Both the position numbers and the translations under genes were made by a program. From assembly GCA_044339115.1 (NCBI GenBank), contig JBIIWA010000015.1, forward strand, positions 4,818 to 68,817: DNA of 64,000 nucleotides. The letters run 5' to 3'. Under the pieces are notes generated by a model that searched no databases, was not told the DNA's origin, and worked only from the letters and a program-made list of their open reading frames with translations. Source of the DNA: Crocinitomicaceae bacterium (GTDB taxonomy: Bacteria; Bacteroidota; Bacteroidia; Flavobacteriales_D; Crocinitomicaceae). This document shows positions 40,972-61,943 of this stretch, piece by piece. Each line of letters starts with the position of its first letter. Position 1 is the stretch's first letter.

Positions 40972-40974
40972 TAC

Positions 40975-41656: not shown

Positions 41657-41743
41657 GAAAAAAGCGCCAACCTAAGGCAGGCGCTTGCATCAGTGTGGAG
41701 TCCACCGACTTGTTCTCGAACCCCTTTTTGGAGGATTTGGAGA
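41657..41743. repeat. ~87-bp repeat, copy 2 (upstream of mntA)
   Basis: See copy 1. Contains GCGCC-N11-GGCGC with a flanking A/T run and the palindrome GTGGAGTCCAC. Confidence 0.8.
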
Positions 41744-43207: not shown

Positions 43208-43708
43208 ATGCTTAAACATCTTTCATTTAATGGAAACAAAACTGCTTACCTAATTCAAGGGCAAAAATTTGTACTGAATTTTCATTTCACTAGATGTCTA
43301 TTTGTATTGGTTTATTACAATAATGGAAAATACCCTGATGGCCGTTTTCATTTTAATAAATGTTGGAATAAAATTTCTTTAAGGTCCACTAAAGGAGCTT
43401 TTGAATCAATTACCAATGTTTATCATCCGGAGATTAAATTCATTACTTTTGGTTACGGGATAAAAATTCATCGTGTTGTCTTAAAGATTAATTTTTTCAA
43501 CACCATTGAACCAAATATTTCCATAAAAGATAGAAGTTTTACGAAAGTACCTGAAGTTAAAATCAGGGATCAAAAAGTGGTGCTGCATCCCATTGAATTT
43601 TCCAAAATGGACCAGAACCCTAAATTTCATGTTTTGGATGTTGAGTTGAACAATAAGTCTGAATTAAATTATAAGAATATTAAATTAATGAATTATGAGT
43701 CAAATTGA
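43208..43708 (+). CDS. hypothetical protein (first gene of the 43.2-49.5 kb operon)
   Basis: 166-aa ORF overlapping the next gene by 14 nt. No motif recognised. Confidence 0.5.
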   Translation: MLKHLSFNGNKTAYLIQGQKFVLNFHFTRCLFVLVYYNNGKYPDGRFHFNKCWNKISLRSTKGAFESITNVYHPEIKFITFGYGIKIHRVVLKINFFNTIEPNISIKDRSFTKVPEVKIRDQKVVLHPIEFSKMDQNPKFHVLDVELNNKSELNYKNIKLMNYESN

Positions 43709-44981: not shown

Positions 44982-44992
44982 TTTTCTAGACT

Positions 44993-46117
44993 TTGAAAAG
45001 ATTGATAATTGAATTATTAGGCTTGGAGGATCATATTTTCTCCTCTGTTTCAGCTAGTGAAAAATCTTTGTTTTCACTAGTTGTTATTTGTTTTATGGGG
45101 TTTTTCCTCCTTTCAATTTTCTCTAGTTTTTTCCTTGCTTTTCTTATCACAGGATCTTATTTGTTTTCTTTTACACTTGGCTTGTTTTTAATTTTTGTGG
45201 TCAATTTTGTTATTCGTTTTTCATTATTAATTATAAAAAGACCAGTTTCCAAGGTGATTGAAGAAAATGTGGTGCTTACTGAGACAACACCAATTGCAAT
45301 CCCCATTGCAACGCCTAATGGTTCTTCTAAACTTTCCAACTTGCTCAAAAAGCTTGATGTTAGATCCATATTTACATCTGGACAAGTTCCATGGTTTAAT
45401 TTTACATTGCGGATCTTTTTCTCAACTGTTTTTGCATTAATATTAATTTTTCCGCTAACTGCTTTATTCAATAAATCAAGAGTCAATACTTTATTAGGTG
45501 AGAAAAGAATAGAATTGTATAAAGAAAATTATAAGAGTATTCACGCTGACTTTAAACTTAAAGTCAGCCGTCAGGAGCACCAAATCAGTAAGGCAACTAT
45601 CAAATTGAAAATGATATCTAAATCTGCTCAAAAAAATAGTATTAGTTTTAAAAATCAACTAGTTGAAATAGCCAATCTAAAGCAACAATTGTTAGCAATT
45701 AAAAATGAATTTTATAGTGGTATTTCAAATCAAATGGAGCTGTATAGAAGTAATTTGAATGCTGCTTATTTTCCGATTTTTATATTTAGAAATTGCCTGC
45801 ATTTAAATGGATTTTGGCTAATAGCATTCGTTATTTTTACACTTGTTTTTTTGCCACAAATTCTATTGGTAAGATTGAAGAACCACCCTGACTTTAATTA
45901 TGCTAAACTTTCTAATGAATACTATCATGGAATAATACATGGTCAATATCAAAAATCAAAAACGTGGGCGGAAGGTTATTTATCATCTATGAATAATCAA
46001 TCAAAAGTTGTTCTCAATTCAAAATATGACGATCCTCCATACAACACAAAGAAAATAAAACAAATACGCAAAGGGATATCTGATCTTGAATTTTACAATC
46101 AATTAAAAATAAATTGA
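44993..46117 (+). CDS. membrane protein with the same TM/coiled-coil/TM layout (divergent DUF4407-like?)
   Basis: TTG start. N-terminal TM cluster ending VVNFVIRFSLLI (compare IFNLDRFIV upstream), a further TM, a coiled-coil-like region, and a late TM (FWLIAFVIFTLVFLPQILLV). Confidence 0.45.
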   Translation: MKRLIIELLGLEDHIFSSVSASEKSLFSLVVICFMGFFLLSIFSSFFLAFLITGSYLFSFTLGLFLIFVVNFVIRFSLLIIKRPVSKVIEENVVLTETTPIAIPIATPNGSSKLSNLLKKLDVRSIFTSGQVPWFNFTLRIFFSTVFALILIFPLTALFNKSRVNTLLGEKRIELYKENYKSIHADFKLKVSRQEHQISKATIKLKMISKSAQKNSISFKNQLVEIANLKQQLLAIKNEFYSGISNQMELYRSNLNAAYFPIFIFRNCLHLNGFWLIAFVIFTLVFLPQILLVRLKNHPDFNYAKLSNEYYHGIIHGQYQKSKTWAEGYLSSMNNQSKVVLNSKYDDPPYNTKKIKQIRKGISDLEFYNQLKIN

Positions 46118-47376
46118 GTAGTATAACCAACTATTATAAAGGGTATTTAAAAGCCCAATTTACAACTGTTTCCAAACAGAAAATTGGATCAGTCAATGAT
46201 TCGCAATCTAAAATTATTTTGGAGCCTCGATTTTATTGCATGAATTTTATACAGGTAAAAGAAAATGAAATACCTACTTCTGCTTTGTTATCCAATACGC
46301 CTCATCTTTATCAAACTGGCCGCTTTGATATTGAATGTTATCCAGGTGAGGACCAGAAAAATGGGATTCGTAGAACTGCTACTAATATCATCTTACTGTT
46401 AAATAAAAAAAATCCCGATAATTCAGAACTTTCGAATGAATTAAGCTCCTGGCATGAATATGACTTTAAAGAGTCGAGAGAGAAACATTACGATAGCTTT
46501 CTTTCTAATAGTCAGGTAATGCCTCATGGAAGAATTGAGGGTGACGCCTACTTTTTAGTTGAAGAATTAATTGATTTAGAGGGTAAAGTAATTGTAAATT
46601 CTACTTCAGTTACGGCAAGTGGAAGCATGTCACCTGGATGTCTCGGTTTTCTAAGTGGGATTACGCAAGCAATTTATGGATTTAATCTACGACTGAAGAA
46701 TTGGTTAAATAGCTTATTTGGGAAAGCTTTTGGATCCAGTTTAATTGGACAAGAACCAAATGGTTGTATGCCATCTATGTTACCAAGTGGATGCTCCGGG
46801 CCTGGCTGCTCTCGTTTTGGTTGTGGTTTTTTAAGTTTATTACTCGGATTACTTCTGTTGCTTTGGTTGTTAAAAAACTTATTATATGGGGATTACAAAA
46901 CATCTTCTTCCAACAAAGAACGGATCATTCATGATACTATTTATGTTAATAAAGAAAAGCAGGACACATTAACTTATATAGATGAAACAACGAATACCAC
47001 AGTAAAAATGTTGAGTCTTCCCAATGTTCAATTTGAAAAGAATAAAACGAAATTACTATCGAGTTCATTGAGTGACTTAAATTCATTGGCTGATTATTTA
47101 TTGCAGAATAAAGAAATTAATGCGGAAATTATTGGTCATACCGATAGTGATGGCGATGCAACAGCAAATAAAGAATTGTCTCAATCTAGAGCTGAAGAAG
47201 TAAAAAGGTATATAGTGAGTTTAGGAGTTCAAGAATCTAGGATTAAAGCAACTGGAAAAGGGGAGTCCGAACCTAGAACAGAGAACGAAACTGCAGAAGG
47301 TCGTGCAATGAATAGAAGGGTAGAGGTGAAGTTAACACAGTATAATTCAACTAAAACCACCAGAACTAAAAAGTAA
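46114..47376 (+). CDS. OmpA/MotB-type peptidoglycan-binding-domain protein with unknown N-terminal domain and one TM
   Basis: C-terminal VQFEKNKTKLL...IIGHTDSDGDATANKELSQSRAEEVKRYIV...GKGESEP...NRRVEVKL is a clear OmpA_C-like domain. TTGA start/stop overlap with the upstream gene. Confidence 0.75.
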   Translation: MSSITNYYKGYLKAQFTTVSKQKIGSVNDSQSKIILEPRFYCMNFIQVKENEIPTSALLSNTPHLYQTGRFDIECYPGEDQKNGIRRTATNIILLLNKKNPDNSELSNELSSWHEYDFKESREKHYDSFLSNSQVMPHGRIEGDAYFLVEELIDLEGKVIVNSTSVTASGSMSPGCLGFLSGITQAIYGFNLRLKNWLNSLFGKAFGSSLIGQEPNGCMPSMLPSGCSGPGCSRFGCGFLSLLLGLLLLLWLLKNLLYGDYKTSSSNKERIIHDTIYVNKEKQDTLTYIDETTNTTVKMLSLPNVQFEKNKTKLLSSSLSDLNSLADYLLQNKEINAEIIGHTDSDGDATANKELSQSRAEEVKRYIVSLGVQESRIKATGKGESEPRTENETAEGRAMNRRVEVKLTQYNSTKTTRTKK

Positions 47377-47381
47377 CTTTA

Positions 47382-49004
47382 ATGAGCAGCGAAACCAATG
47401 TTTTATCGGATGTGATTTATTGTAAAGGCAAGCTCTTAGGTTATTCTGAGCCTGGAAAGAGTTCGCAAACCAATGGTAAAATTACCTTTTCTGATTTTTC
47501 TTGGAATTACATGCATATTGATGAAGTTCAGGTGATTGATTATTACCATTCAGAAGCATTAAAAGTGGGTGATTTTTGGTATAGAAAAGTTTTAAAAGGA
47601 AAGAAAAATTGGTGGATGTCACGTCAGTTAATTTGGAAATTTCCTACCTTAAGTTGGCCTAAGCGACCAGAAATATTTATTCCGAGAGGTGATGCCGAAT
47701 TTTATAGTGGAACTTTATACGAAGTCATTATTTCAGATTTTGCAATTATTGATAAAAGGAGTTTTGCAAGTCCGTTAATTCATTTGTCGGCTGATATTTA
47801 TTTTCAAATAAAGAAACCCCAAGTCCCACTAATTCCGGAGAAAAAAGTTACTGTAATTCAAAATAATACTTCTATCATTAATCAAGCAGTAACTGTTGGT
47901 GATGGTCTAAATGTATTGCCCGGTGACATAAGTGCAACGGCAATCGCAAGTGAACCAGTGATTGATAGTGGCCAAAATAAGCTGGCAGTTCCTAATAAAT
48001 CGAGGTCGAAAATAATGAGTTTCCTCCTATGGATTGCTGCATTATTTATCGCTTGGAAGTTCTTCCCTTTATTGGTTTTACCTATATTTTTAATAGGTCT
48101 TTCAACCATTTTATTTAGGTTTTTTAGAAAATCATGCCTTCTTATATTATTTTCTCTTATGGTATTTATTGTGGGAGGCTTATTACTGCTCTATTTTTTA
48201 TCAAATAACTATAAAACACATATTCCTCAGGACAATCGAAAGGGAACAATTAAAACCAGCCCTCCTAAATCCCAAAAAAATAAAGATGGAACTACTGATT
48301 TCACTTCAGAAAAAGAAATTCATTGGTGGGATTTTTTCAATGCAGATTATTGGGCAAGATACAATACAAGTAACACTATATTTTATGAGAGCCAACAACG
48401 ACATCAAAATATAGTATCCAATGAAACTACCAATAATAGTATTCAATTTTTTACAGATGTATACGGCCAAATGAACAAAATGGACAATTACCATATTGAT
48501 TCGTTGACAGAAATTTTTATCGCACATGCCGCTAAGGCTAATTTAAGTCCAATTAGAACTGCTGAAATGGTATCGACATTCATTCAGGAAATTCCATATT
48601 ACCTTGTTCATGATTTGAGCTGTCAGGAAGCATGTAAGCAAGGGGGTTTTACAGCACAATACCATAGCGAAAATAAACCATGTTTACCAAACATTCCTGC
48701 CGGCGTTCAATCCCCGTATGAGTTTATTCATAATTTAAAAGGTGATTGTGATACGCGTAGTTTATTAGCCTATTCGATTCTTAAAAAAATGGGTATTTCT
48801 TGTTCAGTTTGGGTGAGTGAAGCCTATGGACATAGTATTTTAGGTGTCGGATTACCCATTGGAACAGGAACATTTAAGCAAATTAATGGCGTGAAGCATT
48901 ATGCCGTTGAATTAACAGCCAAAGGATTTAAAATTGGTATGATTTCCCCAGACCATACCAATACTGATAATTGGGATATTACACTTTTTTATAATAAATA
49001 CTAA
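47382..49004 (+). CDS. membrane protein with C-terminal transglutaminase-like (papain-fold Cys-His) domain
   Basis: GDCDTRSLLAYSILKKMGISCSVWV...YGHSILGV. The Cys codon at 48747-48749 and His codon at 48831-48833 follow the G.C...a.l...lr..GI....v....H spacing of transglutaminase-core proteins. 2-3 TM segments in the middle. Confidence 0.5.
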   Translation: MSSETNVLSDVIYCKGKLLGYSEPGKSSQTNGKITFSDFSWNYMHIDEVQVIDYYHSEALKVGDFWYRKVLKGKKNWWMSRQLIWKFPTLSWPKRPEIFIPRGDAEFYSGTLYEVIISDFAIIDKRSFASPLIHLSADIYFQIKKPQVPLIPEKKVTVIQNNTSIINQAVTVGDGLNVLPGDISATAIASEPVIDSGQNKLAVPNKSRSKIMSFLLWIAALFIAWKFFPLLVLPIFLIGLSTILFRFFRKSCLLILFSLMVFIVGGLLLLYFLSNNYKTHIPQDNRKGTIKTSPPKSQKNKDGTTDFTSEKEIHWWDFFNADYWARYNTSNTIFYESQQRHQNIVSNETTNNSIQFFTDVYGQMNKMDNYHIDSLTEIFIAHAAKANLSPIRTAEMVSTFIQEIPYYLVHDLSCQEACKQGGFTAQYHSENKPCLPNIPAGVQSPYEFIHNLKGDCDTRSLLAYSILKKMGISCSVWVSEAYGHSILGVGLPIGTGTFKQINGVKHYAVELTAKGFKIGMISPDHTNTDNWDITLFYNKY

Positions 49005-49016
49005 ACTTTAAACATT

Positions 49017-49526
49017 ATGAACGCAATCATTATTATCCAGTTACTCGTTGCTTTTGTTATCGGGATCTCATCATTATTTATCATTTACAGAGCAGTTAAC
49101 TTCGCCATGTCAAAGTACTTTGGCTTGGACGACAAGGACAATACCTCTTTCACGGTGTTTCAAATGGGAATCATTATCTCTGGTGCACTCATCTTGTCAA
49201 CCATTATTGATCCTGCTATTAATGCTATTCGTATATTAAATCCTCAAGGCAGCATTAATATTTCACAAGTACTTACCTCTTTAGCATATGTAGGTCTCTT
49301 TGCACTCATAGGGATCGTTTGCACACTTGTCGTTATTGCAGCTGCCTTGGTTACCATCTTCCAACTTACAAAAATCAATGAAATTGAGGAGATGAAAAAT
49401 AATAAAATCAATGCCTCTTTAATTATCGTTGCCTTAATTATTGGTTTGTCCTTGATTATCGATAATTACTGTGGACAAATGTGTGAAACCTTAATTCCTT
49501 ATCCGGAAGTATTACAAATTCGTTAA
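49017..49526 (+). CDS. small polytopic membrane protein (about 4 TM)
   Basis: Four hydrophobic stretches in 169 aa; possibly DUF350-like, not confirmed. Confidence 0.45.
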   Translation: MNAIIIIQLLVAFVIGISSLFIIYRAVNFAMSKYFGLDDKDNTSFTVFQMGIIISGALILSTIIDPAINAIRILNPQGSINISQVLTSLAYVGLFALIGIVCTLVVIAAALVTIFQLTKINEIEEMKNNKINASLIIVALIIGLSLIIDNYCGQMCETLIPYPEVLQIR

Positions 49527-50550: not shown

Positions 50551-53500
50551 ATGTCCCACCTCGAACCCACCTACCTTCGTTACATCTACGATGGTCTTCT
50601 CAAAGGAATCATCCATCCAGAAAATGCCGCAGAATTACCTGATGGCTTAATTGGTCTTTACGATGAAGCTTTCGATGAAAGAACTTCAGTCGTTGAACGC
50701 CAAAAACTGCTGCAGCGCTTTGCTATTTGGGCACTTTTGAAAAAAGAAGTAAGTGCAGCGTTTGTTGCTGAAGTATTGGGTGACACAGAAGATAAAATAC
50801 AAGATTTTATTTCTACATATAGTTCTTGGTTCAATAGCCCCGAAAGCGGCAAGTACCAGTTGTACCATGAGCGATTAAAAGTGTATTTATTGCAGAAGTT
50901 GAGTGATGGGGAAATTTATGGGCTTCACGAAAAACTTATTTCGCGATTAGAACAAGCCATCGAAGAGCAAAAAGCAGATGAATTTGAGTGGTATGGGTTG
51001 GAGTTTTTGGGTGAACTATATTTTTCCAATTTTGATGATAAACTATTTGAAATTTCCTTTAACAAAATATTCCAAGATAGACAAGTTTTTATTCTAGGTG
51101 ATTTTCGCATTGCATTTAAAAATCTTGAGTTATCAATACTGCTTGCAAAAAGCAGAAATGACAGAAAATCTATTGTTAAAGCAAGCACGGAAAAATTGAA
51201 AATTCGAAAACGATTTCATGAAAATTTCGACCTTCTTTATGGAAGTATCAACAACAATCACGCCATTACATCTAACTTACTTGGACACTATAATAATAAA
51301 ACAAAGGGATTAGTTTCAGTTTTACTTTTTCATGAGTTTTTTGAAGGGGACCTTCAGCTACACCCCTTAAAATCGTTGTTCATACATTTAATAATGGAGG
51401 ATTTATCATCCATAGAAGATGATCCAGTTAAACGTGGATGGTTATTATCTGTCCCTGAAATTGCTCAGGATCTTTATTTACATGAGTTAAATGAATTAGA
51501 TATTGATGACTTTCATTTCAGAAAGTTGATTCAGTTTATTACAAACGATGATGATTTAGAATACGAATTTAATTTTAATGAATCTATTTCTTTATTTAAC
51601 GATGACATAGAAACTTTAGAGGATAAAACAGAAGATTTCAATTTCGCGAATTATCTTGATGATTCAGATCAAGAGGTTCCTTCATTTCTCTCATTAGATA
51701 CGTCGGAGAACCCCTTTGAATCATTGAGTATGGATGATGAAAATGAATTTAAAGCATTTTTGGCAAGTATGGGTGATAACAATATCGATTTCGACTCTAA
51801 TAAAGTGGATATAGAAAGTAATTTAAGACCCATACATACTTTTGAAGAAAGAAAGTTGCAACTAATAAATGAATTAAATAACTCAAGTAATAAATTGCAA
51901 GATTTAATTCAATTTTCTAATGAGTTAATTCGACTAAAAGAAAATTTATTTTTAGCAGAAATAGGGCTTCAATTGCTACTATCGATTTCAGATTTTGTTA
52001 AATCAAGAGAATTTAATCATTTGTACCAGACAATTATTCAAGAGCTTACAGAACGAAAACAAGAAAGTAATCCTGTTGTTTTTTCTCATGAGGTAAAAGC
52101 ATGCTGCGAAGTATTATTAGAACAACATTTCTATACTGAAGCTTTGGAGTTAATTCCATTTATCTCACAGTCGGAAATGCGTGATGATTTATATTCTTCT
52201 GCATTGAATTCATCTTATGATTTTGATAAAGAAATTTATGCAAATGTTTTGAAGAATGCATGTCAAATACATAAATTAGACACATCTATTTACATCAATA
52301 AAGGCGAATTAATTCGTGAGTTTATTTTGCAATGCAAAACGAATGAATTAGATGATATTTTTTCAAGCTCAGATAGCTTCTTTCTAACTATGCTATGTGG
52401 AAGTATTATTGAAGACGATAGACTTTTCATCAGAATTACTGACGATTATAATCTACTAAAAGTATTGATTCCGGCATTTAAGAAGACTATGAATCATTCA
52501 TTACAGAGTTTTTCAGAAATTTTCGAGATTCATTGTAATTTACAGAATGGTGAAATACCACTTTCCGAAAAAGATTTCCAATCACTGTGTAAACAAATTA
52601 GTAAAGTTGACAATAAGGAAGAACTTAAAAAGCTCTATTCCTGCTTATATCTTTTCTCCCAAAATGAGCAAATAACAGCTTTCATCCTGAGTCAATTCAA
52701 TTCGATGGTAAAAGAAAATAAAAAGATCATTTCAGAAATATTACATGATAAAAATGAACATCTTTATTTATTCAAAAGCACACTCATTATTTGGAGGAGA
52801 TTAAATGCCGCACAAAAAGAAAAGTATAAAAGTATATTCAATGAAATATATAATCAAACCAAAAATAATGAATTGAATGAAAGAAGTGCCTGTATTTTTC
52901 TGATAAATAAAGAACTTGGGTTCGAAGATCATATTTTTAGTAAGCAAAAACTCGAGTTGTCGGTTTCAATATTACTTTTAAAAAATGGATATGTAGAGGA
53001 GGCAATTGAAATAGCTACACTTTGCAAAGATTCTAATCCTGCAATTATTCAGCTTGAATTTTGGATTGAACTACTTGAACATAAAGATGATTCCGAAAAT
53101 CTAGTTAATAATTTTATTAACTTCGTAAATGATAAATTTGAGGTCTTTTCTGAGGAAATATCAATAGAAGATCAATCTTTTGTCTATGTCCCCCTTTTTG
53201 CGAGAGCGTTGAACAAACTTTATGAATTCGATAAAGTGGTTGAATTTAAATCTTTATTTCAGATATTATTGAATCATATCGAATCACTTTCTGTTTCGCT
53301 AAATGAAAAGCGCAAACTTCTTTATGTTTTTTCATTTAGCATTAATTTCAATGTTTTTAAATATATACTTTGCCTGGCAAACAAAAACCAACAACTTTTG
53401 TTAGCGAGTTCTCTTTCTTTTTTAAAAGGATATCATAAGAATATTCAGGATAAGATTCTCGAGGAATTATGTGTTATTAGAGATGATGCCGATTTGGTTG

Positions 53501-53622
53501 AAAATGCATTACTCCACCTTTCTAAATGCGATCATTTTTATTCTGATTTATTTGATACTATGAATGAAACTAGTGAAATTTTTAATTTTGAGTATTGGCT
53601 GACTTTAAAATCTCCCAAATAA
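50551..53622 (+). CDS. large helical protein A: conserved 154-aa STAND-helical/winged-helix-like N-module plus a unique arm of about 870 aa
   Basis: The N-module is ~92% identical to that of the next gene (13 differences in 154 aa, hand count). ELPDGLIGLYDEAFDER and GKYQLYHERLKVYLLQKL resemble the post-P-loop helical/WH region of NACHT/STAND ATPases. The rest is helical and AT-rich-encoded, with an acidic segment at aa 331-422. Confidence 0.6.
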   Translation: MSHLEPTYLRYIYDGLLKGIIHPENAAELPDGLIGLYDEAFDERTSVVERQKLLQRFAIWALLKKEVSAAFVAEVLGDTEDKIQDFISTYSSWFNSPESGKYQLYHERLKVYLLQKLSDGEIYGLHEKLISRLEQAIEEQKADEFEWYGLEFLGELYFSNFDDKLFEISFNKIFQDRQVFILGDFRIAFKNLELSILLAKSRNDRKSIVKASTEKLKIRKRFHENFDLLYGSINNNHAITSNLLGHYNNKTKGLVSVLLFHEFFEGDLQLHPLKSLFIHLIMEDLSSIEDDPVKRGWLLSVPEIAQDLYLHELNELDIDDFHFRKLIQFITNDDDLEYEFNFNESISLFNDDIETLEDKTEDFNFANYLDDSDQEVPSFLSLDTSENPFESLSMDDENEFKAFLASMGDNNIDFDSNKVDIESNLRPIHTFEERKLQLINELNNSSNKLQDLIQFSNELIRLKENLFLAEIGLQLLLSISDFVKSREFNHLYQTIIQELTERKQESNPVVFSHEVKACCEVLLEQHFYTEALELIPFISQSEMRDDLYSSALNSSYDFDKEIYANVLKNACQIHKLDTSIYINKGELIREFILQCKTNELDDIFSSSDSFFLTMLCGSIIEDDRLFIRITDDYNLLKVLIPAFKKTMNHSLQSFSEIFEIHCNLQNGEIPLSEKDFQSLCKQISKVDNKEELKKLYSCLYLFSQNEQITAFILSQFNSMVKENKKIISEILHDKNEHLYLFKSTLIIWRRLNAAQKEKYKSIFNEIYNQTKNNELNERSACIFLINKELGFEDHIFSKQKLELSVSILLLKNGYVEEAIEIATLCKDSNPAIIQLEFWIELLEHKDDSENLVNNFINFVNDKFEVFSEEISIEDQSFVYVPLFARALNKLYEFDKVVEFKSLFQILLNHIESLSVSLNEKRKLLYVFSFSINFNVFKYILCLANKNQQLLLASSLSFLKGYHKNIQDKILEELCVIRDDADLVENALLHLSKCDHFYSDLFDTMNETSEIFNFEYWLTLKSPK

Positions 53623-53624
53623 CC

Positions 53625-56600
53625 ATGCCTCACCTCGAACCCACCTACCTCCGTTACATCTACGATGGTCTTCTGAAAGGAAGCATCCATCCGGAGAATG
53701 CTGCTGAATTGCCCGATGGCTTGATTGGTCTTTATGAAGAAGCCTTCGATGAGCGTACTTCGGTAGTGGAACGCCAAAAACTATTACAACGCTTTGCTAT
53801 TTGGGCTTTATTGAAAAAAGAAGTAAGTGCAGCGTTTGTAGCCGAGGTTTTGGGCGAAACCGAAGATGATATTCAGGATTTTATATCTACTTACAGCGCC
53901 TGGTTCAACAGCCCAGAAAGTGGTAAGTACCAATTGTACCATGAGCGCTTGAAGGTGTATTTGTTGCAGAAGTTGAGTGAGGGGGAGGTGCATGCGTTAC
54001 ACGAGAAACTAATTTTTCGATTAGAGCAAGCCATTGCAGAACAAAAAACGGATGAGTTTGAGTGGTATGGCTTGGAGTTTTTGGGAGGACATCTAACTTT
54101 AAGTTGTTTTCAGAAAAACACAAAAGAAAAGTACAACAGATTAATGAATTTCGCCTTGAATGATAATTATCATAATAGACAATTTGAATTTAGTTTTCAA
54201 TACCAATGGACATTTAACCTATTGCATTCTGTTCAGTATTTAACTATCGTTTTACGGAAAAGGGATGTTGAGTTAATTAATTTAAAATTTATAGAAGTCA
54301 ATGAGCGATTACAAGCCTCAATTCATGAGTTAATATATTTGGTTAGGGATGGGAATATTGAGATTACACTAGTTAGAATTAATTGTCTAATGTCTCAAAG
54401 TGAAAATGAAGTAAAAACTAAGCTAAGATTGATTTTATTGATTTTAACTGATATCTGTGTCAACAATAAAAGTATTAATTCAAATGAGCATTATCTAATT
54501 AGCGAACTGCTTCAAATCCTAGAGTTTGAATTTAAAAAATATAAAATTGATATTTTCGATTTAATCCCTCCCAATATATTTTTTCAAATCGTTTTGTTTT
54601 TGAAAGATTCAACTTTAGATTATAAATGCCTTCTTAATTTGGTTATATATGATTGGGGTTTTTCAGGAATTTCAAAAATTCTGACTCCAGATTTCATTAA
54701 GTTTTTCATTTCTTCAAATAAATATAGGTCTTTTGAAATCGAAGGGCTTTTTGTTGAAATAAGACAGATTGCATATATGAACCAAGTTGGGCTTGCCCAA
54801 ACAGGAATAGACTGTGCAATAATGGCTTTGTTAAACGAATATGCGCCTGAGAGATTAGCCGATTACTTGAGAACATCATTTAGAGATTTTTTAAATGCTG
54901 TTTCTTATGATTGGATTAAAACTTGGTTGAATAAGGTGATGTGCCATCTTCATGTTGATTTCATTGTTAAATATCTAGGAGGAGATTTATTATCGGATCA
55001 TATTCCAACTAATTTAGCTAATGAGATTGTTAGAATTGAAAAAAAATTAGAAATAATGGATTCAATTCTTTTAAAGGTTTATGAGTCTAACAGTAAATCA
55101 AACGAAATTAAAGAACTTATTGAGTATTCAGAAAATTTATTAGCGTATTACTTAGAAACAGAAACCTCGAAAATTCGTTCTGAAAAAGTAATGCATTTTT
55201 TTCAATTAAAATTGCTAATTGATACATTATCTAGAAAGGAAATTAGCAGCTTAATTAATCAAACAATTGACATCATAAAAGACGAATCGGATGACATATA
55301 CTTAAAACAAATAATAAGTACGCTTTACTTTTTTAAATTGTCGGAATATGCTCCGAGGTTTATTGCGTTATATGTTGATATAAAGTATGCCAAAAGCAGT
55401 GCGTTCTTAAATGGGCTATTAATGAATAATCAAATAATTGCGATTAATCAAATTGAAAATGTAGATGAGAATTATCTAGATGGTTTGATTTATAAGTTAA
55501 ATTATGATATTTGGAGAAATCAGTTATCTAATACTTCAATTTTATTTTTAGAAAATTTAAAATGGTTTATTTCACAAATCAAATCGGATAATTCAGTCAC
55601 CAATATAAACGATGACTATTGGCAAATTATTCTGGGAATCATTTTTAATTCTGATATTCTTGAATGTTACATTGACACCTATTTAAGTGAAGCTTTACGA
55701 TTTTCTCCTGATTTAATTAAAAAGAGATTTTATCATTTTGTAGCTAAGCCAAAACTAATGAAAAGGCATTCAGGTGTCGAATTGGATGTCATTAGAATGA
55801 TTGATTTGGAGATTGAATTATTTAAAAAGACTCAAACAGGACAAATTGAAAAGTTATATGATTCACTTCTTAGCACTTTTTGTGAGGCCCTTATTGAAGT
55901 AAATTGGTCCATGAAAAATAAAGATGTTTATCGCTTTGCTAAATTAAAATTGGAGAAAAGTGAGATTCAAGTTGCAATTAATTGTTTATCCGAAATTGAT
56001 GTTTCTTCTCAATGTTTTGTGGAATTAGTTTTTGATATTTCTTTAAAACTTTTCCAAGGTAATGAAGAAATAGATTTTGCATTGGAAATCTTACAATATG
56101 TAAAACATCATTTTGAATATAAAGAGTATGATAACGGAGAATCCTACAGCTACTATCATATTGATCATGGTAAACAATATGTGGATTTAGTTGATAATTT
56201 ATTGTTTAAAATTCTTTCTTTTCATCAATTAAACATAAAGCAATTTCAAGAATTATTGTTCAATGTTGGAGTAATAGATGACAATTACAACTTAACAACT
56301 AAGAATTTCCATTCTCCATCATTTATTAGAAACATCATCGATAAAGAGGTAAAAACATTCATTTGTGATTTATTAAATCCATCAAATACAAGTGGCCATA
56401 ATAATCTATTTTCTGTTAAACTTGGAATTAAAAGTCTTCTTGAATATGAATTAAACGAGATTGAAATTCAAAATATATTAAATGAATTAATTGAATATCT
56501 TAACCAATCATACGAACAAGTTGAAATTAATCTCGATTTCAGTAAATTTTTTAATAATATGGGTTTGTCAAATATTAGTTTCTTTAATGTTATTCATAAG

Positions 56601-57200
56601 CACAACATTATTAATCTAAAAGTGGCATTAAAATCTTTAGGGATTGCAAAACGCCTACCTATTTATTCATTCTGTGAAATCCTCATTACTAAATCAATTA
56701 TTGATAAAACAGAATCTTCACTAATAACTATTTTTCCCGAATTTGAAAACAAGTCTGAACTTACCGAATATTTACATGAAATATGTTTAAAGATAAAGCA
56801 AAGTAGAAATGTTTATTTGAAAGATTTTTATCATTTCACTTTCCTTACAGAAAATACGAATAGGGATGATTTAATTAAAGAATTATTTCAAAAACGAAAA
56901 TTTAAACCTAAAAAACATTTGGTTCAACTATTCTATTTGGATGATTTTACAAGAAGAAAATTTCTTGTAAGTTTTTACAATAACATTTCAAATTTTTATA
57001 ATTCCGAAATTAATTGGTATTTAGTATATCATCTTTGTAGGTCTGATTATAATTTATTGAAGCACTTTAATTCAGAACGGATAAAAATACTTCTAATGCA
57101 GGGAAAAATACCAAAAAAACTAAGTAATTTGGTGACAGATAAAAAGGAATATCTTTCAGAGATAAACAAGTTAAACAATTTAAGTGTAGACTTAATATGA
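53625..57200 (+). CDS. large helical protein B: the same 154-aa N-module plus a different arm of about 1040 aa
   Basis: ATG at 53625 (MPHLEPTYLRYIYDG) is chosen by homology with MSHLEPTYLRYIYDG of gene A; it lies 2 nt after A's stop. The ORF-track start at 53595 would overlap A. Confidence 0.6.
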   Translation: MPHLEPTYLRYIYDGLLKGSIHPENAAELPDGLIGLYEEAFDERTSVVERQKLLQRFAIWALLKKEVSAAFVAEVLGETEDDIQDFISTYSAWFNSPESGKYQLYHERLKVYLLQKLSEGEVHALHEKLIFRLEQAIAEQKTDEFEWYGLEFLGGHLTLSCFQKNTKEKYNRLMNFALNDNYHNRQFEFSFQYQWTFNLLHSVQYLTIVLRKRDVELINLKFIEVNERLQASIHELIYLVRDGNIEITLVRINCLMSQSENEVKTKLRLILLILTDICVNNKSINSNEHYLISELLQILEFEFKKYKIDIFDLIPPNIFFQIVLFLKDSTLDYKCLLNLVIYDWGFSGISKILTPDFIKFFISSNKYRSFEIEGLFVEIRQIAYMNQVGLAQTGIDCAIMALLNEYAPERLADYLRTSFRDFLNAVSYDWIKTWLNKVMCHLHVDFIVKYLGGDLLSDHIPTNLANEIVRIEKKLEIMDSILLKVYESNSKSNEIKELIEYSENLLAYYLETETSKIRSEKVMHFFQLKLLIDTLSRKEISSLINQTIDIIKDESDDIYLKQIISTLYFFKLSEYAPRFIALYVDIKYAKSSAFLNGLLMNNQIIAINQIENVDENYLDGLIYKLNYDIWRNQLSNTSILFLENLKWFISQIKSDNSVTNINDDYWQIILGIIFNSDILECYIDTYLSEALRFSPDLIKKRFYHFVAKPKLMKRHSGVELDVIRMIDLEIELFKKTQTGQIEKLYDSLLSTFCEALIEVNWSMKNKDVYRFAKLKLEKSEIQVAINCLSEIDVSSQCFVELVFDISLKLFQGNEEIDFALEILQYVKHHFEYKEYDNGESYSYYHIDHGKQYVDLVDNLLFKILSFHQLNIKQFQELLFNVGVIDDNYNLTTKNFHSPSFIRNIIDKEVKTFICDLLNPSNTSGHNNLFSVKLGIKSLLEYELNEIEIQNILNELIEYLNQSYEQVEINLDFSKFFNNMGLSNISFFNVIHKHNIINLKVALKSLGIAKRLPIYSFCEILITKSIIDKTESSLITIFPEFENKSELTEYLHEICLKIKQSRNVYLKDFYHFTFLTENTNRDDLIKELFQKRKFKPKKHLVQLFYLDDFTRRKFLVSFYNNISNFYNSEINWYLVYHLCRSDYNLLKHFNSERIKILLMQGKIPKKLSNLVTDKKEYLSEINKLNNLSVDLI

Positions 57201-57907
57201 ATAAAGAAACCCACCCATTTTTAGAACTAGGAAAAGTGCCAAATGCTACCAAACTAATACTCGGTTCATTTCCAGTATATTCCATAACGCTTCCCGATAG
57301 TGAAGAAAAAAATAGAATTCGTAAAAGTGACGGATCCGTTCAATTCTTTTATGGCAGTTGTAGAAGTAGTTTTTGGGGACTTTATCATTTGTACATAGAC
57401 AATGGTTTGGAAATTCCAATTACTCCAAAAGAGGCATTGTCAAGCCTTGTCAAAAATCAAATTGCAATTTCAGATGTAATTTCGGAGTGTGAAAGGAATG
57501 GAAAAAGTGCTTTGGATAAAGATCTGAAAAAGCGTATTTATAACATTCAAATGATGAATGAGTATTTGGATTCAGGTATCACCAAAATTCTGTGTACATC
57601 AAAAGGTGTAATGGATATGATTCATGATCAGATTGCAAAAAAGTCCAAAGAATTTATTTTTCAGGAAGATGAATCTTATAAATGGCAAACTGAGGTAATG
57701 TCAAAACTGAAAGGAAGTGAGATTCAAATAAAAAAGTTGATTTGCAGACAATATGTTTATAAGGGTAAAACAATTCGATTAATTTCAATTCCTTCGCCTG
57801 GCTCACCACAAAGACAATTAAAACAATTTGGATTTACAGGTGATGATTGGAGAGAGTATGCAGATAAGTATTTTGAATTTTCATTTAAATGGCTAAAAAT
57901 AGATTAA
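57197..57907 (+). CDS. uracil-DNA-glycosylase-superfamily protein, family-6 (hypoxanthine/deoxyinosine DNA glycosylase)-like
   Basis: THPF...KLILGSFPVYS...FFYGSCRSSFWGL...IAISDVISECER.G.SALDKDL...ILCTSKGV parallels the remembered HDG pattern (HPF, LILGsFPs, YYghp.NrFW, iaLwDVi.sC...gS.D). ATGA overlap with gene B. Confidence 0.5.
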   Translation: MNKETHPFLELGKVPNATKLILGSFPVYSITLPDSEEKNRIRKSDGSVQFFYGSCRSSFWGLYHLYIDNGLEIPITPKEALSSLVKNQIAISDVISECERNGKSALDKDLKKRIYNIQMMNEYLDSGITKILCTSKGVMDMIHDQIAKKSKEFIFQEDESYKWQTEVMSKLKGSEIQIKKLICRQYVYKGKTIRLISIPSPGSPQRQLKQFGFTGDDWREYADKYFEFSFKWLKID

Positions 57908-57910
57908 GTT

Positions 57911-58207
57911 ATGGATCATAAAACAAAATGTAATTGTTGCGACTGTGTTTGGCAACGTGTTGTTAAAAATCAAGGTGCAGTTCTTAGGTTGAAATTTCAA
58001 AAGCAAATTTCATATAAAATTGAAAAGAATATGATCGTTTGGTTATCAATGGAACCCACCCAGCGAGTACTTTTTAGGCAAAGACGAATTAGTATTTGTA
58101 ATTCAATTCCATCTCGTCAAAACAATTTTGGACCCTCTAGCTATCCTGGTACAGCAACATCTTACAAATGGGCATTATTAAATGATGATCGAATTTGGCT
58201 ATTATGA
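57911..58207 (+). CDS. small hypothetical protein with N-terminal Cys cluster
   Basis: The 98-aa ORF exactly fills the gap between flanking genes (3-nt gap upstream, ATGA-type overlap downstream). Carries CNCCDC at aa 7-12. Confidence 0.4.
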   Translation: MDHKTKCNCCDCVWQRVVKNQGAVLRLKFQKQISYKIEKNMIVWLSMEPTQRVLFRQRRISICNSIPSRQNNFGPSSYPGTATSYKWALLNDDRIWLL

Positions 58208-59736
58208 AATTCAAAGAAATTTCTAACCTCCCAACACGCCTCACCGAAAAAATCAAGGCAGTCCAATCCGAAGAAGACGCCTACGCAGCGGATGAACTCG
58301 TTGAATTAGGCGAAGAAATTCTTTCGCAGTTGGCTGCAATGGGAATTGCCGTTTACTTGCAACAGGCGAAACAAAAAGATGTGTTTAATGACTTTTTGAT
58401 TTCTTTGTTTTTGTCGAATGGACATGCCTATAATGCGGGTCCCTTGTATCGCTGGGCGGCAAATATGATCAAAGATGCGGAGGGAGATCAAGCATTAGAA
58501 TTACGTCCATTTTTCTGGCAAACGAAGGAAGGAAAAGAAGTGTTAAATGAGGAAATTCATCATTTGGCAAGTTTGCGGAATGCGGTAATGCATGGTTTCT
58601 TTGTCCTGCCGCCTGAACGTAACCGTGAAGAGGCTCAAAAGATGGAAGTGATACTCGAGTCTATGGTAAAGGCAAACTTATTTCAAAGTTCCTTTGGAAG
58701 TTTCCATTTCATCGACCAACAAGGATTCAATGGACATTGGAACATACAGAATATACAAACTTGGAACCTGTTCAATCAAGAATTTCCATTTGGAAAGTTA
58801 GCGATTCGAGTGGCACATGAATATGCCGATGATTTCCGAAAAGAAGAAGATCAATTTGCCTCGGAGAAAGGCAAGTCCTTGTCAGATGTGGAAGTAGAAG
58901 TAAATAACTTACTCGATAAAGGGAAAGGTGCTTTAGTCTGCTGGTATCAAGCAGAAAGTAATCAAGGTTTGGCTTCCTACCGAACCGCTATTCAATCTTT
59001 GGACAAAGACAAGTACTTACCGATTTACTATGCCTTACATGCGAATGGAGCAACATTTACAGCTTCTTTTCTGGAACAGGAGATCGGTAAAGCATTGTAT
59101 CAACTAACTTCAGATGAAAAAGCGCTAAAAGAACCTTTCAAATACCTAAAAGCACAAAAAGGAAAATTATCAAAGAAACCAATTATCGTCTTGCATGATA
59201 TTCATATTGCGTTGTTTAGCCCGAATCATTTAACCAATTTATTTAATACGCTATATGATTTAGATGTTCCGATTGTAGCTACATCCTTGCATTATCCTTA
59301 CCTCAAACGTTTCTTTAATATGCAATTGACTTTGTCAGAGAAACATACAAATTCATTGGAACAAGTGAATCTTTCTTTAGTCAATTATGTACGTTTTAAA
59401 GGTCCAAGTCCGGACCAAGAAACGGAAAAAGAGAATTTTGAGATCCTGAAAAAAATAGTGCACGAGATACATGAGCAATTGGAGAAAAACCAACGTGTAG
59501 TTGCTCGTCGTTTTGCAGATGATAATAACTATCCCATTGAATTTGTTCATGAGGCATTTGGAATATTAAGTCCATTTTACCAAGCAGAAAAAGAGGCCTT
59601 TAAAGAAGACGAGGTGGATGAATTGTATGGTTTTCCTAAATCCATTGAAGAGAGCTCACGAATATTCTTAACTTTAGGTAGACGTGATGTGAAACTAGAG
59701 TACCAGCATAAAGTATTGTCAAATGCCAAACAATAA
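58195..59736 (+). CDS. Rx4H (HEPN-like) N-domain plus degenerate P-loop NTPase-like domain (probably an inactive paralogue of the next gene)
   Basis: LRNAVMH at 58576-58593 (aa 128-133). LLDKGKGALVCWYQAESNQGLAS occupies the place of Walker A, PIIVLHDIHIAL the place of Walker B, and VPIVATSLHYP is sensor-1-like. An alternative ATG at 58204 gives an ATGA overlap. Confidence 0.5.
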   Translation: MAIMKFKEISNLPTRLTEKIKAVQSEEDAYAADELVELGEEILSQLAAMGIAVYLQQAKQKDVFNDFLISLFLSNGHAYNAGPLYRWAANMIKDAEGDQALELRPFFWQTKEGKEVLNEEIHHLASLRNAVMHGFFVLPPERNREEAQKMEVILESMVKANLFQSSFGSFHFIDQQGFNGHWNIQNIQTWNLFNQEFPFGKLAIRVAHEYADDFRKEEDQFASEKGKSLSDVEVEVNNLLDKGKGALVCWYQAESNQGLASYRTAIQSLDKDKYLPIYYALHANGATFTASFLEQEIGKALYQLTSDEKALKEPFKYLKAQKGKLSKKPIIVLHDIHIALFSPNHLTNLFNTLYDLDVPIVATSLHYPYLKRFFNMQLTLSEKHTNSLEQVNLSLVNYVRFKGPSPDQETEKENFEILKKIVHEIHEQLEKNQRVVARRFADDNNYPIEFVHEAFGILSPFYQAEKEAFKEDEVDELYGFPKSIEESSRIFLTLGRRDVKLEYQHKVLSNAKQ

Positions 59737-59739
59737 TCT

Positions 59740-61227
59740 ATGAATCCAATCGATAAATACCACGAGCGTTTTCTTCAACTTAAAAAGGAGAAAGAAATTA
59801 AACCAGATTCAGAGGTTATTTTGAAATTGATTGAATCAGATCCAGCAGGTTTGAACAATTATTACATGGCTGCTTTGGGCATGAGCACACTGCTTCTTCG
59901 TTTCGGAGCTGTCATTCAATTGTGTCAAAAGTTTGAGAACTTGGATGAACATGGAGATGCACTTTTCCTCAAACAAATTCTTGATAATTTGAGAGAGAGT
60001 TTGCCTTCCGATACCAGTTGGAAAAATTTATGGGCAATGTCCACCGAGGATGAAGTGTGGCTGAAGCCAGTCCTGAAGCCCAAAAATGGTGAGGCCTTAT
60101 TAAATCGTTTTATCACATTTCGTAATCGGTATGTTCATCAATTAATTAGAATTGAAGAAGCTTTTTTACCGCAATTGATTACCAGTATTACCTTATTTGA
60201 TGAAATGGCGGAATTAACTTCGCTGTTTAAAGATGGTGACTTAGTTTGTTTAGATGGAAAATATGTTTGGAACCAAAACGATAAGATTATTTCCTTACAT
60301 CCATATGTTCAAGCAGGTAAACAAGGTGATGATCCCTATATTTTTCAAGGCTTGTATGACAATAAATCACAGGCACATCTACTCAATTTACATCTGGGAG
60401 ACGAAGATAAGCAACCCGCAAATGATCACCTAGAACCGAATTTCACTCCAATTAGAGAGGCGATTAGGGGAGGAGCGGGGCAAGTCTTCGACCATAGCGA
60501 GCGAATTGCGTACTACCAATCTTGTTTTGTTGGAAGAGATCGTGAAAAAGCAGCCATCCTTGATTTTTGTAACGGTTCAGGGGAACAAAATCTACTCTGT
60601 GTGAAATCACCTGCTGGAATGGGTAAGGGAGCACTTATCGCTGATGTCATCGAACAGCTAAAAAAAGATAAAACACAGGTTCTGTATCACTTTTGTGGTG
60701 CTGGAATCCAAAATAGCCTTCATGCTACACTGTATCATTTAATAATTCAGGGGAAAGAGTATTGGAATCGTTCCGATGAATCCTTAGACCGTAAACTGAA
60801 TCGCTTGCCCTCAAAATTCATAGATGTGATTCATTTGTTTCAGTCTTTATTGAGTAAAGAAAACCTGAAATTAAATGCTAAAAACGAATCTGGCAATCTG
60901 GTCATCATCATTGACGGCCTAGACGAGGCACAAGTCGCTTATTCGCAACTTAAAATTTCAGATTGGTTTTATTCCTATAACGAGAAGGAGGAACCTGAAG
61001 AAGATTGGAGAAGTGCATCTAATATCCGATGGATTTTCACCTACCGGTGCGATGACGATGGAACTGAATCGTTTTTTCAATTTCCAAAAATGAAGGAATT
61101 AGCAGAAATTCAAATCCTTCAACCCTTAACTGGTCTTTCTCCTGAAGCGGTGGATGAAGCGTTCAAAGATTTTGTGGTTTCTAAGGAATTTAAAGAAATG
61201 GTGATTGAAAAAGCAGAAATAATATAA
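59740..61227 (+). CDS. Rx4H (HEPN-like) N-domain plus STAND-type P-loop NTPase core, lacking winged-helix and repeat regions
   Basis: FRNRYVH at 60121-60138 (aa 128-133). Walker A-like SPAGMGKGA at 60607-60633. Walker B LVIIIDGLDEA at 60898-60930. IRWIFTYRCDD is sensor-1-like. ILQPLTGLSPEAVDEAF follows, and the protein stops 25 aa later. Confidence 0.65.
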   Translation: MNPIDKYHERFLQLKKEKEIKPDSEVILKLIESDPAGLNNYYMAALGMSTLLLRFGAVIQLCQKFENLDEHGDALFLKQILDNLRESLPSDTSWKNLWAMSTEDEVWLKPVLKPKNGEALLNRFITFRNRYVHQLIRIEEAFLPQLITSITLFDEMAELTSLFKDGDLVCLDGKYVWNQNDKIISLHPYVQAGKQGDDPYIFQGLYDNKSQAHLLNLHLGDEDKQPANDHLEPNFTPIREAIRGGAGQVFDHSERIAYYQSCFVGRDREKAAILDFCNGSGEQNLLCVKSPAGMGKGALIADVIEQLKKDKTQVLYHFCGAGIQNSLHATLYHLIIQGKEYWNRSDESLDRKLNRLPSKFIDVIHLFQSLLSKENLKLNAKNESGNLVIIIDGLDEAQVAYSQLKISDWFYSYNEKEEPEEDWRSASNIRWIFTYRCDDDGTESFFQFPKMKELAEIQILQPLTGLSPEAVDEAFKDFVVSKEFKEMVIEKAEII

Positions 61228-61229
61228 CT

Positions 61230-61943
61230 ATGGGATTTTTTAATACAATAAAAGAGGGTGATACCTTCACAGCAGTTTCCGATGGAAGTGGAGGCTTTAA
61301 TTTTAAACCCAAAGGTGGTGCTGATGGAGGTGGGGGAGGATTAATACTTCTGGCGTTTATCTTATTGGCTTTGTTGATTGCAATAATTTGTCTCCCTTTG
61401 GTTTTAGCGCTTTATGCATTAATGTTAGATGATTATTCTGCCAGAAGAACTAGAATAATCGCTCTTGTTATTACAGTGGTTCTCATACTTGCGTATTTTT
61501 TTGGTCAACATGTTGAAAGTGCAAAGCCTGTGTTTGAATTAATATTAAATTACAAAAGATTATTTAAAATGGCGCTAATACTTAATGCTTTTGGTGTTAC
61601 AAGCGCTGTATTGGGCTTATTAAAAGGAGTCCCGAATAAATACAATTCGATTTTTACCATAGTAGGTGTGATTACTTTCCTTGGAGGTTCGATCTACAAA
61701 TTTGGTGGCGATCTTTTTGAAACGACAGAAACAAAAGTTTTTACCGAAGAACAACTAAATCAAGCTTGTGAATGCAACGAAAATAGCTACAGTAATAAAC
61801 CAATAGCTTATGATAACATGACTTCAAGTGATCAACAAAAGCGAACAAACTGTTTTGAACTTTTTAAACCTGAGGATTATATGATAGGTTATAATGTTGA
61901 TTCATTAATGAAGGTCGCTTGTGATCAGAAAAGTTCGAAATAA
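61230..61943 (+). CDS. polytopic membrane protein with Gly-rich N-terminus (candidate membrane effector)
   Basis: Starts 2 nt after the NTPase stop. GGADGGGGG is followed by about 5 hydrophobic segments and a Cys-containing soluble C-terminus. Confidence 0.5.
   Translation: MGFFNTIKEGDTFTAVSDGSGGFNFKPKGGADGGGGGLILLAFILLALLIAIICLPLVLALYALMLDDYSARRTRIIALVITVVLILAYFFGQHVESAKPVFELILNYKRLFKMALILNAFGVTSAVLGLLKGVPNKYNSIFTIVGVITFLGGSIYKFGGDLFETTETKVFTEEQLNQACECNENSYSNKPIAYDNMTSSDQQKRTNCFELFKPEDYMIGYNVDSLMKVACDQKSSK

Follow-up and report, generated by a model that had tools for sequence, protein, structure and literature searches.

A candidate STAND/NLR-like switch encoded in separate polypeptides in freshwater Bacteroidota

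Described STAND receptors and the locus

The experimentally studied antiviral signal-transduction ATPases with numerous domains (STAND) of prokaryotes, Avs and bNACHT, each join sensor, switch and effector covalently in a single chain. Here we analyze a 64,000-nucleotide stretch of DNA from a Crocinitomicaceae bacterium (contig JBIIWA010000015.1 of assembly GCA_044339115.1, positions 4,818 to 68,817; hereafter the window), in which an operon appears to code for such parts as separate proteins. These are a 495-aa protein with a HEPN-like region and a STAND-type P-loop core (henceforth the NTPase), a 510-aa partner with a HEPN-like motif of its own (par513), and two large proteins, here termed sensors A and B, that share an N-terminal module of about 150 aa followed by unrelated arms (Table 1). 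The best-supported reading of these genes is a switch like that of STAND proteins and receptors of the nucleotide-binding, leucine-rich-repeat class (NLRs), split within helical domain 1 (HD1); that a STAND/NLR-type switch is encoded here in separate polypeptides is a proposition to which we assign a probability of roughly 0.55.

The NLR-related bNACHT antiphage proteins include HEPN among their effector domains (Kibby et al., bioRxiv 10.1101/2022.07.19.500537). The locus resembles them in an N-terminal, putative effector region followed by a NACHT-type P-loop, in a Walker B of the form DGxDE and a TxR sensor 1, and in its matches to NPHP3_N, NACHT and AAA_16. It differs from them in that the chain with the nucleotide-binding domain (NBD) stops past sensor 1, the winged-helix-like module and the sensor being found on one to three separate proteins, in the obligatory, conserved 510-aa partner, and in a Walker A that reads GKG. 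With Avs the locus would share the combination of an effector, a STAND NTPase and a large helical sensor binding phage proteins, Avs sensors being modular and exchanged between clades (PMC13581612); Avs3 is also among the structural neighbors of the N-terminal module. From the Avs survey, STAND clades that lack a sensor of 400 aa or more were excluded, and "split proteins" appear in its methods only (Nature 2026, PMC13581612). Avs proteins are, however, single polypeptides, and no PADLOC Avs or STAND model matches the core proteins at a meaningful score. Neither sensor has a PADLOC match, par513 has none in PADLOC-DB v2, and the best matches of the NTPase in that database (E ~2e-3) lie over short P-loop stretches. 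Our literature searches for a described split STAND or NLR found nothing relevant, the HEPN-NACHT and Avs proteins described there being single chains only. An earlier reading of the DNA from its letters (the sequence-only reading) had not recognized the layout as a described system.

In plants, sensor/helper NLR pairs and the NRC network let several alternative sensors feed one shared executor, which makes them a functional analog of the locus; there, sensor and helper are each a complete NLR with its own NB-ARC, whereas here the sensor subunit would itself complete a single nucleotide-binding domain. Fungal and bacterial NPHP3_N-type NACHT NLRs, such as the HET-E/NWD family, have an LPxGLxxLY immediately past the NACHT domain, followed by a winged helix, resembling the ELPDGLIGLY ... 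QRFAIWALL of the module, which we treat as a lead only. NPHP3_N is indeed the best Pfam model for the window NTPase, but the HET-E/NWD proteins are single chains and the corresponding Pfam winged-helix models do not match the module. Finally, the NTP-dependent ternary conflict systems combine vWA-MoxR, iSTAND or GTPase cores with homotypic EAD adaptors on both partners, and are likewise multi-gene, diversifying and NTPase-centered, some occurring in Bacteroidetes and some with OmpA components (Kaur et al., eLife 2020, PMC7159879). In contrast to these, the module here is on the sensors only, and there is no vWA or MoxR gene.

A core of three linked families

The best Pfam model for the NTPase is NPHP3_N (E = 8e-13; 49.3 bits against a gathering cutoff of 24.8). 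AAA_16 (33.5 bits against a cutoff of 32.6), ATPase_2, NACHT and nSTAND1 match as well, all within aa 261–456, with NPHP3_N, AAA_16 and NACHT placed at aa 263–416; these three are each matched by 22 of 22 members of the family. We found 522 homologs, of which the 120 listed are 451–506 aa long and come from freshwater Bacteroidota. The invariant residues include R128-N-x-x-V-H133 (an Rx4H motif), K289-SPAGMGKGAL, D392-G-L-D-E-A, F-T-Y-R436 and L460-Q-x-L. In the window protein, Walker B (LVIIIDGLDEA), sensor 1 (FTYR) and LQPL are all present, with D392, D395, E396 and R436 invariant. Walker A is deviant: S-P-A-G-M-G-K-G-A-L (aa 290–299, window 60607–60636) is itself invariant and retains the Lys of the canonical GxxxxGK[ST] but has Gly where Ser or Thr normally follows it, and this GKG is also kept in a subfamily only 43–50% identical. 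The Gly after the Walker A Lys suggests that the protein may bind nucleotide without normal hydrolysis. Thus, the sequence-only description of this protein as an Rx4H domain with a P-loop core agrees with the motifs and the above-threshold Pfam match, with the qualification that its Walker A-like SPAGMGKG, though real and invariant, is non-canonical.

The Rx4H motif, R128-N-R-Y-V-H133 in the window, lies in helix 120–134 of a helical domain in an AlphaFold model of an NTPase–module chimera (see below). In that model aa 1–180 are helical, with a per-residue confidence (pLDDT) of 80–93 in most 10-residue blocks and of 41–67 over aa 61–100. HEPN profiles remain below threshold on the NTPases, the best being HEPN_RiboL-PSP (E = 0.007, in 3 of 22 members). 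PDB sequence searches with the NTPase, par513 and a fused open reading frame (ORF; see below) gave chance-level matches only, and a tblastn search of plasmids with the NBD gave no match. The chain stops about 59 aa past the sensor-1 R436, with no HD1 and winged helix on the same chain, and the nSTAND1 match covers profile positions 14–178 of 379 only, in agreement with the earlier proposal that it terminates where NACHT/STAND chains continue. On its sequence, the protein is best described as a HEPN-like N-terminal domain joined to a STAND nucleotide-binding domain, its chain ending 59 residues past sensor 1.

The partner par513 is found 5' of the NTPase, directly or with one small ORF between them, in every locus with room for it. 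In its R125-N-A-V-M-H130 segment, R125, N126 and H130 are invariant (R-N-x-x-x-H), and HEPN_LA2681 matches it below threshold (E = 1.6e-3; 18.2 bits against a cutoff of 27), with matches in 10 of 15 members. The two proteins had been taken for HEPN-like P-loop paralogs; this was not supported, as neither BLASTP (E = 0.8) nor profile–profile comparison (hhalign, two runs, probability < 1%) shows significant similarity between them. The GKGA ... IIVLHD ... ATS of par513 resembles a P-loop fold only in the spacing of its motifs.

Sensors A and B are 80% identical over their first 186 aa, with nothing detectable beyond. The same residue is encoded by 141 of their first 154 codons, which bears out the conserved 154-aa module posited earlier at the N-terminus of both. 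At the DNA level the two window modules are 83.8% identical, and their 52 synonymous versus 13 non-synonymous codon differences point to purifying selection on the module protein rather than to recent gene conversion. An alignment of 31 modules places the module always at the first residues of the protein, with 14 invariant positions, including L29, G32, G35, Y37, R50, W93, F94, G100, L104, Y105, H106 and R108. We then searched 1.84 billion representative proteins, in a library clustered at 50% identity, with a module profile and obtained 526 clusters; for 359 the match reached E ≤ 1e-30. Among the 150 listed of these 526 clusters, the module starts at residues 1–15 of proteins of 219–1885 aa, with E ≤ 7e-75 in all. 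Since the library was clustered at 50% identity and the module is highly conserved, the differences among clusters lie in the arms. The module of sensor A itself is matched at E = 2e-94, and the sensor A allele recurs in 21 cluster members. By the same profile, the module is found on sensors only and is absent from the NTPase and par513; further matches within the arms score near 0 and give no evidence of repeats. The arms of seven long representatives and of both window sensors have no Pfam match above threshold. They are Leu-rich with 3.2–3.5% Pro plus Gly and are probably helical; of the earlier description of helical arms of about 870 and 1040 aa, the lengths and the unique sequence hold, and the helicity is a prediction from composition only. 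A separate observation concerns P0183, an N-module fragment annotated by NCBI as part of a Bacteriovoracaceae metagenome-assembled genome (MAG), which points either to a family extending beyond Bacteroidota or to a contaminated bin.

An AlphaFold2 model of the module, built from the 31-sequence alignment (pLDDT 73.5), leaves residues 1–36 unstructured when modeled without a partner. It shows a winged-helix topology (helices 47–62, 69–76 and 80–89, strand 102–104 and helix 107–115) followed by two long helices. A Foldseek search of PDB with this model gave no match at E ≤ 0.001. Among the matches spanning 141–165 columns, the highest query TM-scores belong to Apaf-1 (0.49–0.52, probability 0.97–1.00) and CED-4 (0.47–0.50, probability 0.98), and Avs3 is matched over 110–117 columns (TM-score 0.43–0.47, probability 0.99–1.00). 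MarR-type matches are of similar length to those of Apaf-1 and CED-4 but have a TM-score of ~0.3 and a root-mean-square deviation of 17–19 Å, and SmtB/CadC-type matches cover 95–120 columns only. In NB-ARC proteins, the MHD motif sits at the end of the winged-helix domain (WHD), where H-[DE]-x-hydrophobic-[RK] comes after a strand. We take the invariant Y-Q-L-Y-H-E-R-L of the module to resemble this pattern, which is a resemblance and not a test.

Gene order in other loci bears on the same question. Metagenome loci were found with a degenerate DNA pattern spanning NTPase and module motifs; as the pattern requires adjacency, it shows that the order NTPase–sensor is common and not how frequent it is relative to the order in the window. 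In 29 metagenome contigs the order is par513, NTPase, sensor(s), with NTPases 37–60% identical to that of the window. The sensor ATG overlaps the NTPase stop (ATGA or TAATG) in 27 of these 29, with a spacer of 5 or 18 nt in the other two. This order is collinear with a single-chain STAND. When an artificial join of NTPase and sensor was used as a protein-database query, it retrieved one protein, P0387 (1085 aa, contig L026), with the NTPase profile over residues 1–495, the module profile over residues 500–647 (E = 3e-29) and a 438-aa arm thereafter; a par513 homolog lies just 5' of its ORF, with a 4-nt overlap. In P0387, the WFYxYN motif and the module P-x-Y-L-R are 258 nt apart, exactly as in an end-to-start join of the window proteins. 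Contig L026 and its closest relatives, L042 and L048, differ by a single base, added in L026 to the G-run that immediately precedes the overlap (L026 3400–3530, junction near 3500). We therefore downgraded it from a secure natural fusion, as it is a single contig with a one-base G-run difference. Whether or not this fusion is real, one base separates the split genes from a single chain with the STAND order effector–NBD–helical/winged-helix–sensor. The Pfam STAND model alignments on both the artificial join and P0387 do not reach beyond the junction.

Beyond metagenome contigs, 21 loci were found among 185,579 species genomes (one genome per GTDB species), all of them freshwater Bacteroidota MAGs. 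Here, a locus with at least ~7 kb of upstream sequence usually has between one and three module genes, the exceptions being L010 (a module remnant only) and L018 (none within ~5 kb). Taking the 21 species loci and the 29 metagenome loci together, the NTPase, par513 and module genes co-occur wherever the contig allows, and the core is three families: the sensors, the 510-aa HEPN-like partner and the NTPase. The sequence-only reading had envisaged a seven-gene system and suggested surveying the co-occurrence of module and NTPase. The survey links the core trio; the other genes are not conserved with it, the cassette of a uracil-DNA glycosylase (UDG)-like and a 98-aa gene being variable and the transmembrane (TM) protein a lineage-specific neighbor.

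The window was also compared with L005, the closest relative. Their flanks are 90–99% identical, the NTPases 86% and the par513 proteins 75%, whereas the arms and the cassette are unrelated, indicating that sensors and cassette were replaced at a fixed site. Across 37 loci, mean module identity is 0.66 within a locus versus 0.48 between loci, and module distances track those of the C-terminal half of the NTPase (Mantel r = 0.46, p = 0.001); such co-divergence would fit co-adaptation to a shared partner, inseparable from shared ancestry. In addition, extra copies of the NTPase 3' end lie just 3' of the intact gene in L005 (12081–12197, aa 398–436) and L009 (11914–12057, aa 447–494), which may be recombination scars at the locus boundary.

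All seven ORFs of the operon were found on the plus strand, and each junction, when read, matched the coupling listed in the sequence-only reading (Table 1). The par513 ORF opens at TTG 58195 (513 aa); given the ATGA overlap at 58204, its start is most likely ATG 58204, for a product of 510 aa. A scan for tRNAs found none, and a scan for sigma-70 promoters and terminators, ill-suited to Bacteroidota, gave counts no higher than the shuffled expectation. In the gap 5' of sensor A lies a 114-aa ORF on the minus strand (window 50140–50484) with no family match, and in L005 the equivalent position (1226–1570) is taken by an ORF that agrees with it in size and strand.

Table 1. Genes of the operon, its recurrent neighbors and the alternative cassettes. 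Positions are those of the window unless a locus is named; junctions are with the next gene.
Feature	Position	Strand	3' junction	Description
Sensor protein A, 1023 aa	50551..53622	+	TAA-CC-ATG, 53620/53625; start 2 nt past stop	N-module aa 1-154 = 50551-51012; unique arm of ~870 aa
Sensor protein B, 1191 aa from ATG 53625	53625..57200	+	ATGA overlap, 57197	N-module aa 1-154 = 53625-54086; unrelated arm of ~1040 aa
UDG-superfamily-like protein, 236 aa	57197..57907	+	TAA-GTT-ATG, 57905/57911	Variable cassette, non-core
Cys-rich protein, 98 aa	57911..58207	+	ATGA overlap, 58204	Always directly 3' of the UDG-like gene where present
Core partner par513, 510 aa from ATG 58204	58204..59736	+	TAA-TCT-ATG, 59734/59740	HEPN-like N-terminal region; no recognized fold in the rest
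HEPN-like + STAND/NACHT-type NTPase core, 495 aa	59740..61227	+	TAA-CT-ATG, 61225/61230	Pfam NPHP3_N; no winged helix, no sensor
Multi-TM protein, 237 aa	61230..61943	+		Coupled to the operon in the window; not conserved with the system
Recurrent neighbor cluster	43695..49526	+		DUF4407, 374-aa, OmpA/MotB-like, 540-aa TM protein, DUF350 (Pfam)
Cassette insert	L019 5854-8464			HEC-04-like AAA_15/AAA_21 ATPase (PADLOC E = 6.5e-44) + RhuM/Fic, between UDG-like cassette and par513
Cassette contents elsewhere				~160-aa HNH protein
Cassette contents elsewhere				196-aa protein
Cassette contents elsewhere				AAA+ ATPase + three small proteins, one with an FtsK-gamma winged helix

The proposed switch and its alternatives

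Under the split-switch reading, the 495-aa protein would supply a HEPN-like, probably RNase, effector, the P-loop NBD and the first helices of HD1, and then stop. The ~150-aa module would supply the rest: two helices with LPxGxxGxY, a winged helix that ends in an invariant, MHD-like G-K-Y-x-L-Y-H-E-R-L segment, and two long helices. The allele-specific and probably helical arm that follows would be the ligand sensor, such that a single NTPase chassis could combine in trans with any one of its locally encoded sensors, of which there are one to three. Once the arm has bound a foreign protein, probably from a phage, the winged helix would be released from the nucleotide pocket, whereupon the complex would bind NTP and oligomerize, bringing together HEPN-like domains that would cut RNA and stop the infected cell. 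The par513 protein, which has an Rx4H of its own, is probably a binding partner of the NTPase and would either complete a HEPN dimer or act as a brake. Exchangeable accessory or effector genes would occupy the slot that separates the sensors from the par513/NTPase pair, such as the UDG-like and Cys-rich proteins here and HNH nucleases or an AAA+ ATPase elsewhere. In its fullest form, this amounts to a bacterial NLR-like receptor whose assembly in trans is obligatory, with one effector–NTPase chassis completed in its nucleotide-switch region by interchangeable WHD–sensor subunits and a second HEPN-like subunit and cassettes tuning the output; this stronger version we put forward tentatively, at a little under even odds.

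The sequence-only reading had likewise proposed that the module is the missing helical/winged-helix part and that the N-termini of alternative sensors complete the NTPase core. The domain boundaries, the N-terminal position of the module, the gene linkage, the collinear order, the contig that reads as a single chain with one base changed, the winged-helix model and its Apaf-1, CED-4 and Avs3 neighbors favor both proposals. A defence role is likewise suggested by sensors that are diverse and, like the cassette, replaced between conserved flanks, by a patchy distribution, by cassettes with nucleases and by a candidate defence gene inserted among the genes. The genomic surroundings, too, suit a conflict system, with an HNH protein in the slot of some loci and the HEC-04-like ATPase with RhuM/Fic in L019.

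Several points weigh against this interpretation. First, the module matches no HD1 or WHD family in Pfam (31 members searched) or in a sequence profile search of PDB, and the Foldseek E-values for Apaf-1, CED-4 and Avs3 (0.02–0.09) lie above usual significance. Second, docking was modeled with AlphaFold as a chimera of the window NTPase and module A in native order, with a properly aligned mixed multiple sequence alignment (design A8), and the model is of low confidence, with a mean pLDDT of 57.9, a predicted TM-score of 0.36, junction residues below 50 and no confident interface; its Foldseek matches to ATPase-plus-winged-helix proteins (TIR-NLR, ORC subunits, DnaA, NRC1/NRC4) have E ≥ 0.1 and a TM-score of ~0.1 and do not count as evidence. 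Third, the single-chain ORF comes from one Logan contig of one run, SRR19514073, and turns on a G-run base, which could be a sequencing error. Fourth, a Walker A without the Mg2+-binding Ser/Thr makes normal NTP hydrolysis doubtful. Fifth, the HEPN calls on both the NTPase and par513 rest on the motif and on sub-threshold Pfam matches. Finally, PADLOC has no model for any core protein, and the defence role, like the trans-assembly, the ligand and the RNase activity, is a prediction, whereas domain content, gene linkage, collinearity and sensor diversity are observed.

The first two of these points, together with MarR, SmtB and CadC winged helices at Foldseek E-values similar to those of the STAND proteins, would also suit a conflict system in which the module is a generic winged-helix docking or adaptor domain that recruits variable large proteins to the NTPase/par513 pair and makes no contact with the nucleotide pocket. 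We regard this as unlikely, though deserving serious attention, because STANDs carry on through the region in which the NTPase chain ends, the start of the sensor gene and the stop of the NTPase gene overlap in 27 of the 29 loci, and a one-base change yields a collinear single chain. Moreover, neither the NTPase nor par513 has a further copy of the module, whereas a homotypic adaptor domain would recur there, and STAND proteins are the structural matches in which whole-module length goes together with the highest query TM-scores.

A regulatory STAND that signals for a housekeeping or envelope function, for instance by controlling the adjacent membrane cluster of DUF4407, OmpA/MotB-like and DUF350 proteins, appears to us rather improbable. 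It would account for the presence of that cluster beside the system in at least 10 loci, in several orientations and across subfamilies 45–60% identical, and for the failure of any known defence model to match the core proteins. However, a housekeeping function sits poorly with the patchy spread (21 of the 185,579 species genomes, each of the 21 a freshwater Bacteroidota MAG), with the many loci that have no membrane cluster within 10 kb and with hypervariable sensors swapped between near-identical flanks. A conflict system is the better fit for cassettes with nucleases and for the HEC-04 gene inserted in one locus.

In loci with the collinear order, the split could be only apparent if the NTPase and the first sensor were made as one protein by frameshifting or read-through, leaving an ordinary single-chain STAND. 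The sensor frame is indeed -1 to the NTPase at the ATGA overlap, a G-run often precedes it, and L026 reads through as a single ORF. Yet, in the window and the 21 genome loci the sensors lie 2–9 kb 5' of the NTPase, where fusion is impossible; no conserved slippery heptamer precedes the overlap, L044 and L045 have no G-run at all, and ATGA overlaps are ordinary termination–reinitiation junctions. This renders such an explanation highly improbable. That the genes are fragments of a decaying STAND without joint function, as the truncated look of the NTPase and its non-canonical Walker A might suggest, is effectively refuted by conservation: the NTPase keeps its length in the 120 listed of 522 homologs, purifying selection acts on the module, the unusual Walker A does not vary from one subfamily to another, and tight translational coupling is kept in ~50 loci. 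Thus, a STAND/NLR-like switch divided between the NTPase and the sensors is the reading that we retain.

Accessory cassettes, neighboring genes and implications

The slot between the sensors and par513 varies across loci (Table 1), and the UDG-like and 98-aa genes are one of several swappable, non-core cassettes. The assignment of the 236-aa protein to the UDG superfamily is weak but consistent: it matches TIGR04274 (E = 2e-5; 24.7 bits against a cutoff of 80), its profile matches PDB entry 2l3f at E = 0.11, and its invariant segments LILGSFP and IPSPGSP occur in the order expected of two UDG motifs. The gene is found in 8 of the 21 genome loci (6 of them unequivocal) and in L031, L034 and L050. 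The 98-aa Cys-rich gene, whose product has no family match, is found only beside the UDG-like gene, in seven loci (L006, L009, L011, L012, L018 by tblastn, L019 and the window). The TM protein, which also has no family match, was rejected as a component of the system, as the only other locus to have it is L005 (90% identity), L009 having just a fragment in reverse orientation.

The DUF4407–DUF350 cluster adjoins the system in at least 10 loci, on either side and strand (window, L001 at 14195–19876, L005, L019, L020, L021, L029, L038, L044 and L047), and this linkage spans subfamilies that are only 45–60% identical. The OmpA domain of its OmpA/MotB-like protein matches ZorB models. The cluster could be a linked module or simply part of a shared island; literature searches for DUF4407 or for the combination of DUF4407, OmpA and DUF350 found nothing relevant. 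Farther 5', the window has a Fic/DOC-family gene (39385–40272) and, 5' of the DUF4407 cluster, a stretch of low GC content (0.28–0.32) with few long ORFs (40000–44000). These may mark the edge of an accessory island in a chromosome that is otherwise housekeeping in content, with a protein sorted by the type IX secretion system, a peptidase S9 and a pseudouridine synthase.

If the split-switch reading is correct, the nucleotide switch of NLRs would be divisible between two proteins, and a single chassis could be shared among several sensors, giving a changeable sensor repertoire and a prokaryotic counterpart of sensor/helper NLR networks. It would provide a natural split system in which to dissect the coupling, by the WHD, of nucleotide exchange to the binding of a ligand. 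This split class would have escaped any survey from which "sensor-less" STANDs are removed, and the 526 module-bearing clusters with their unrelated arms would constitute a library of candidate pattern-recognition domains.

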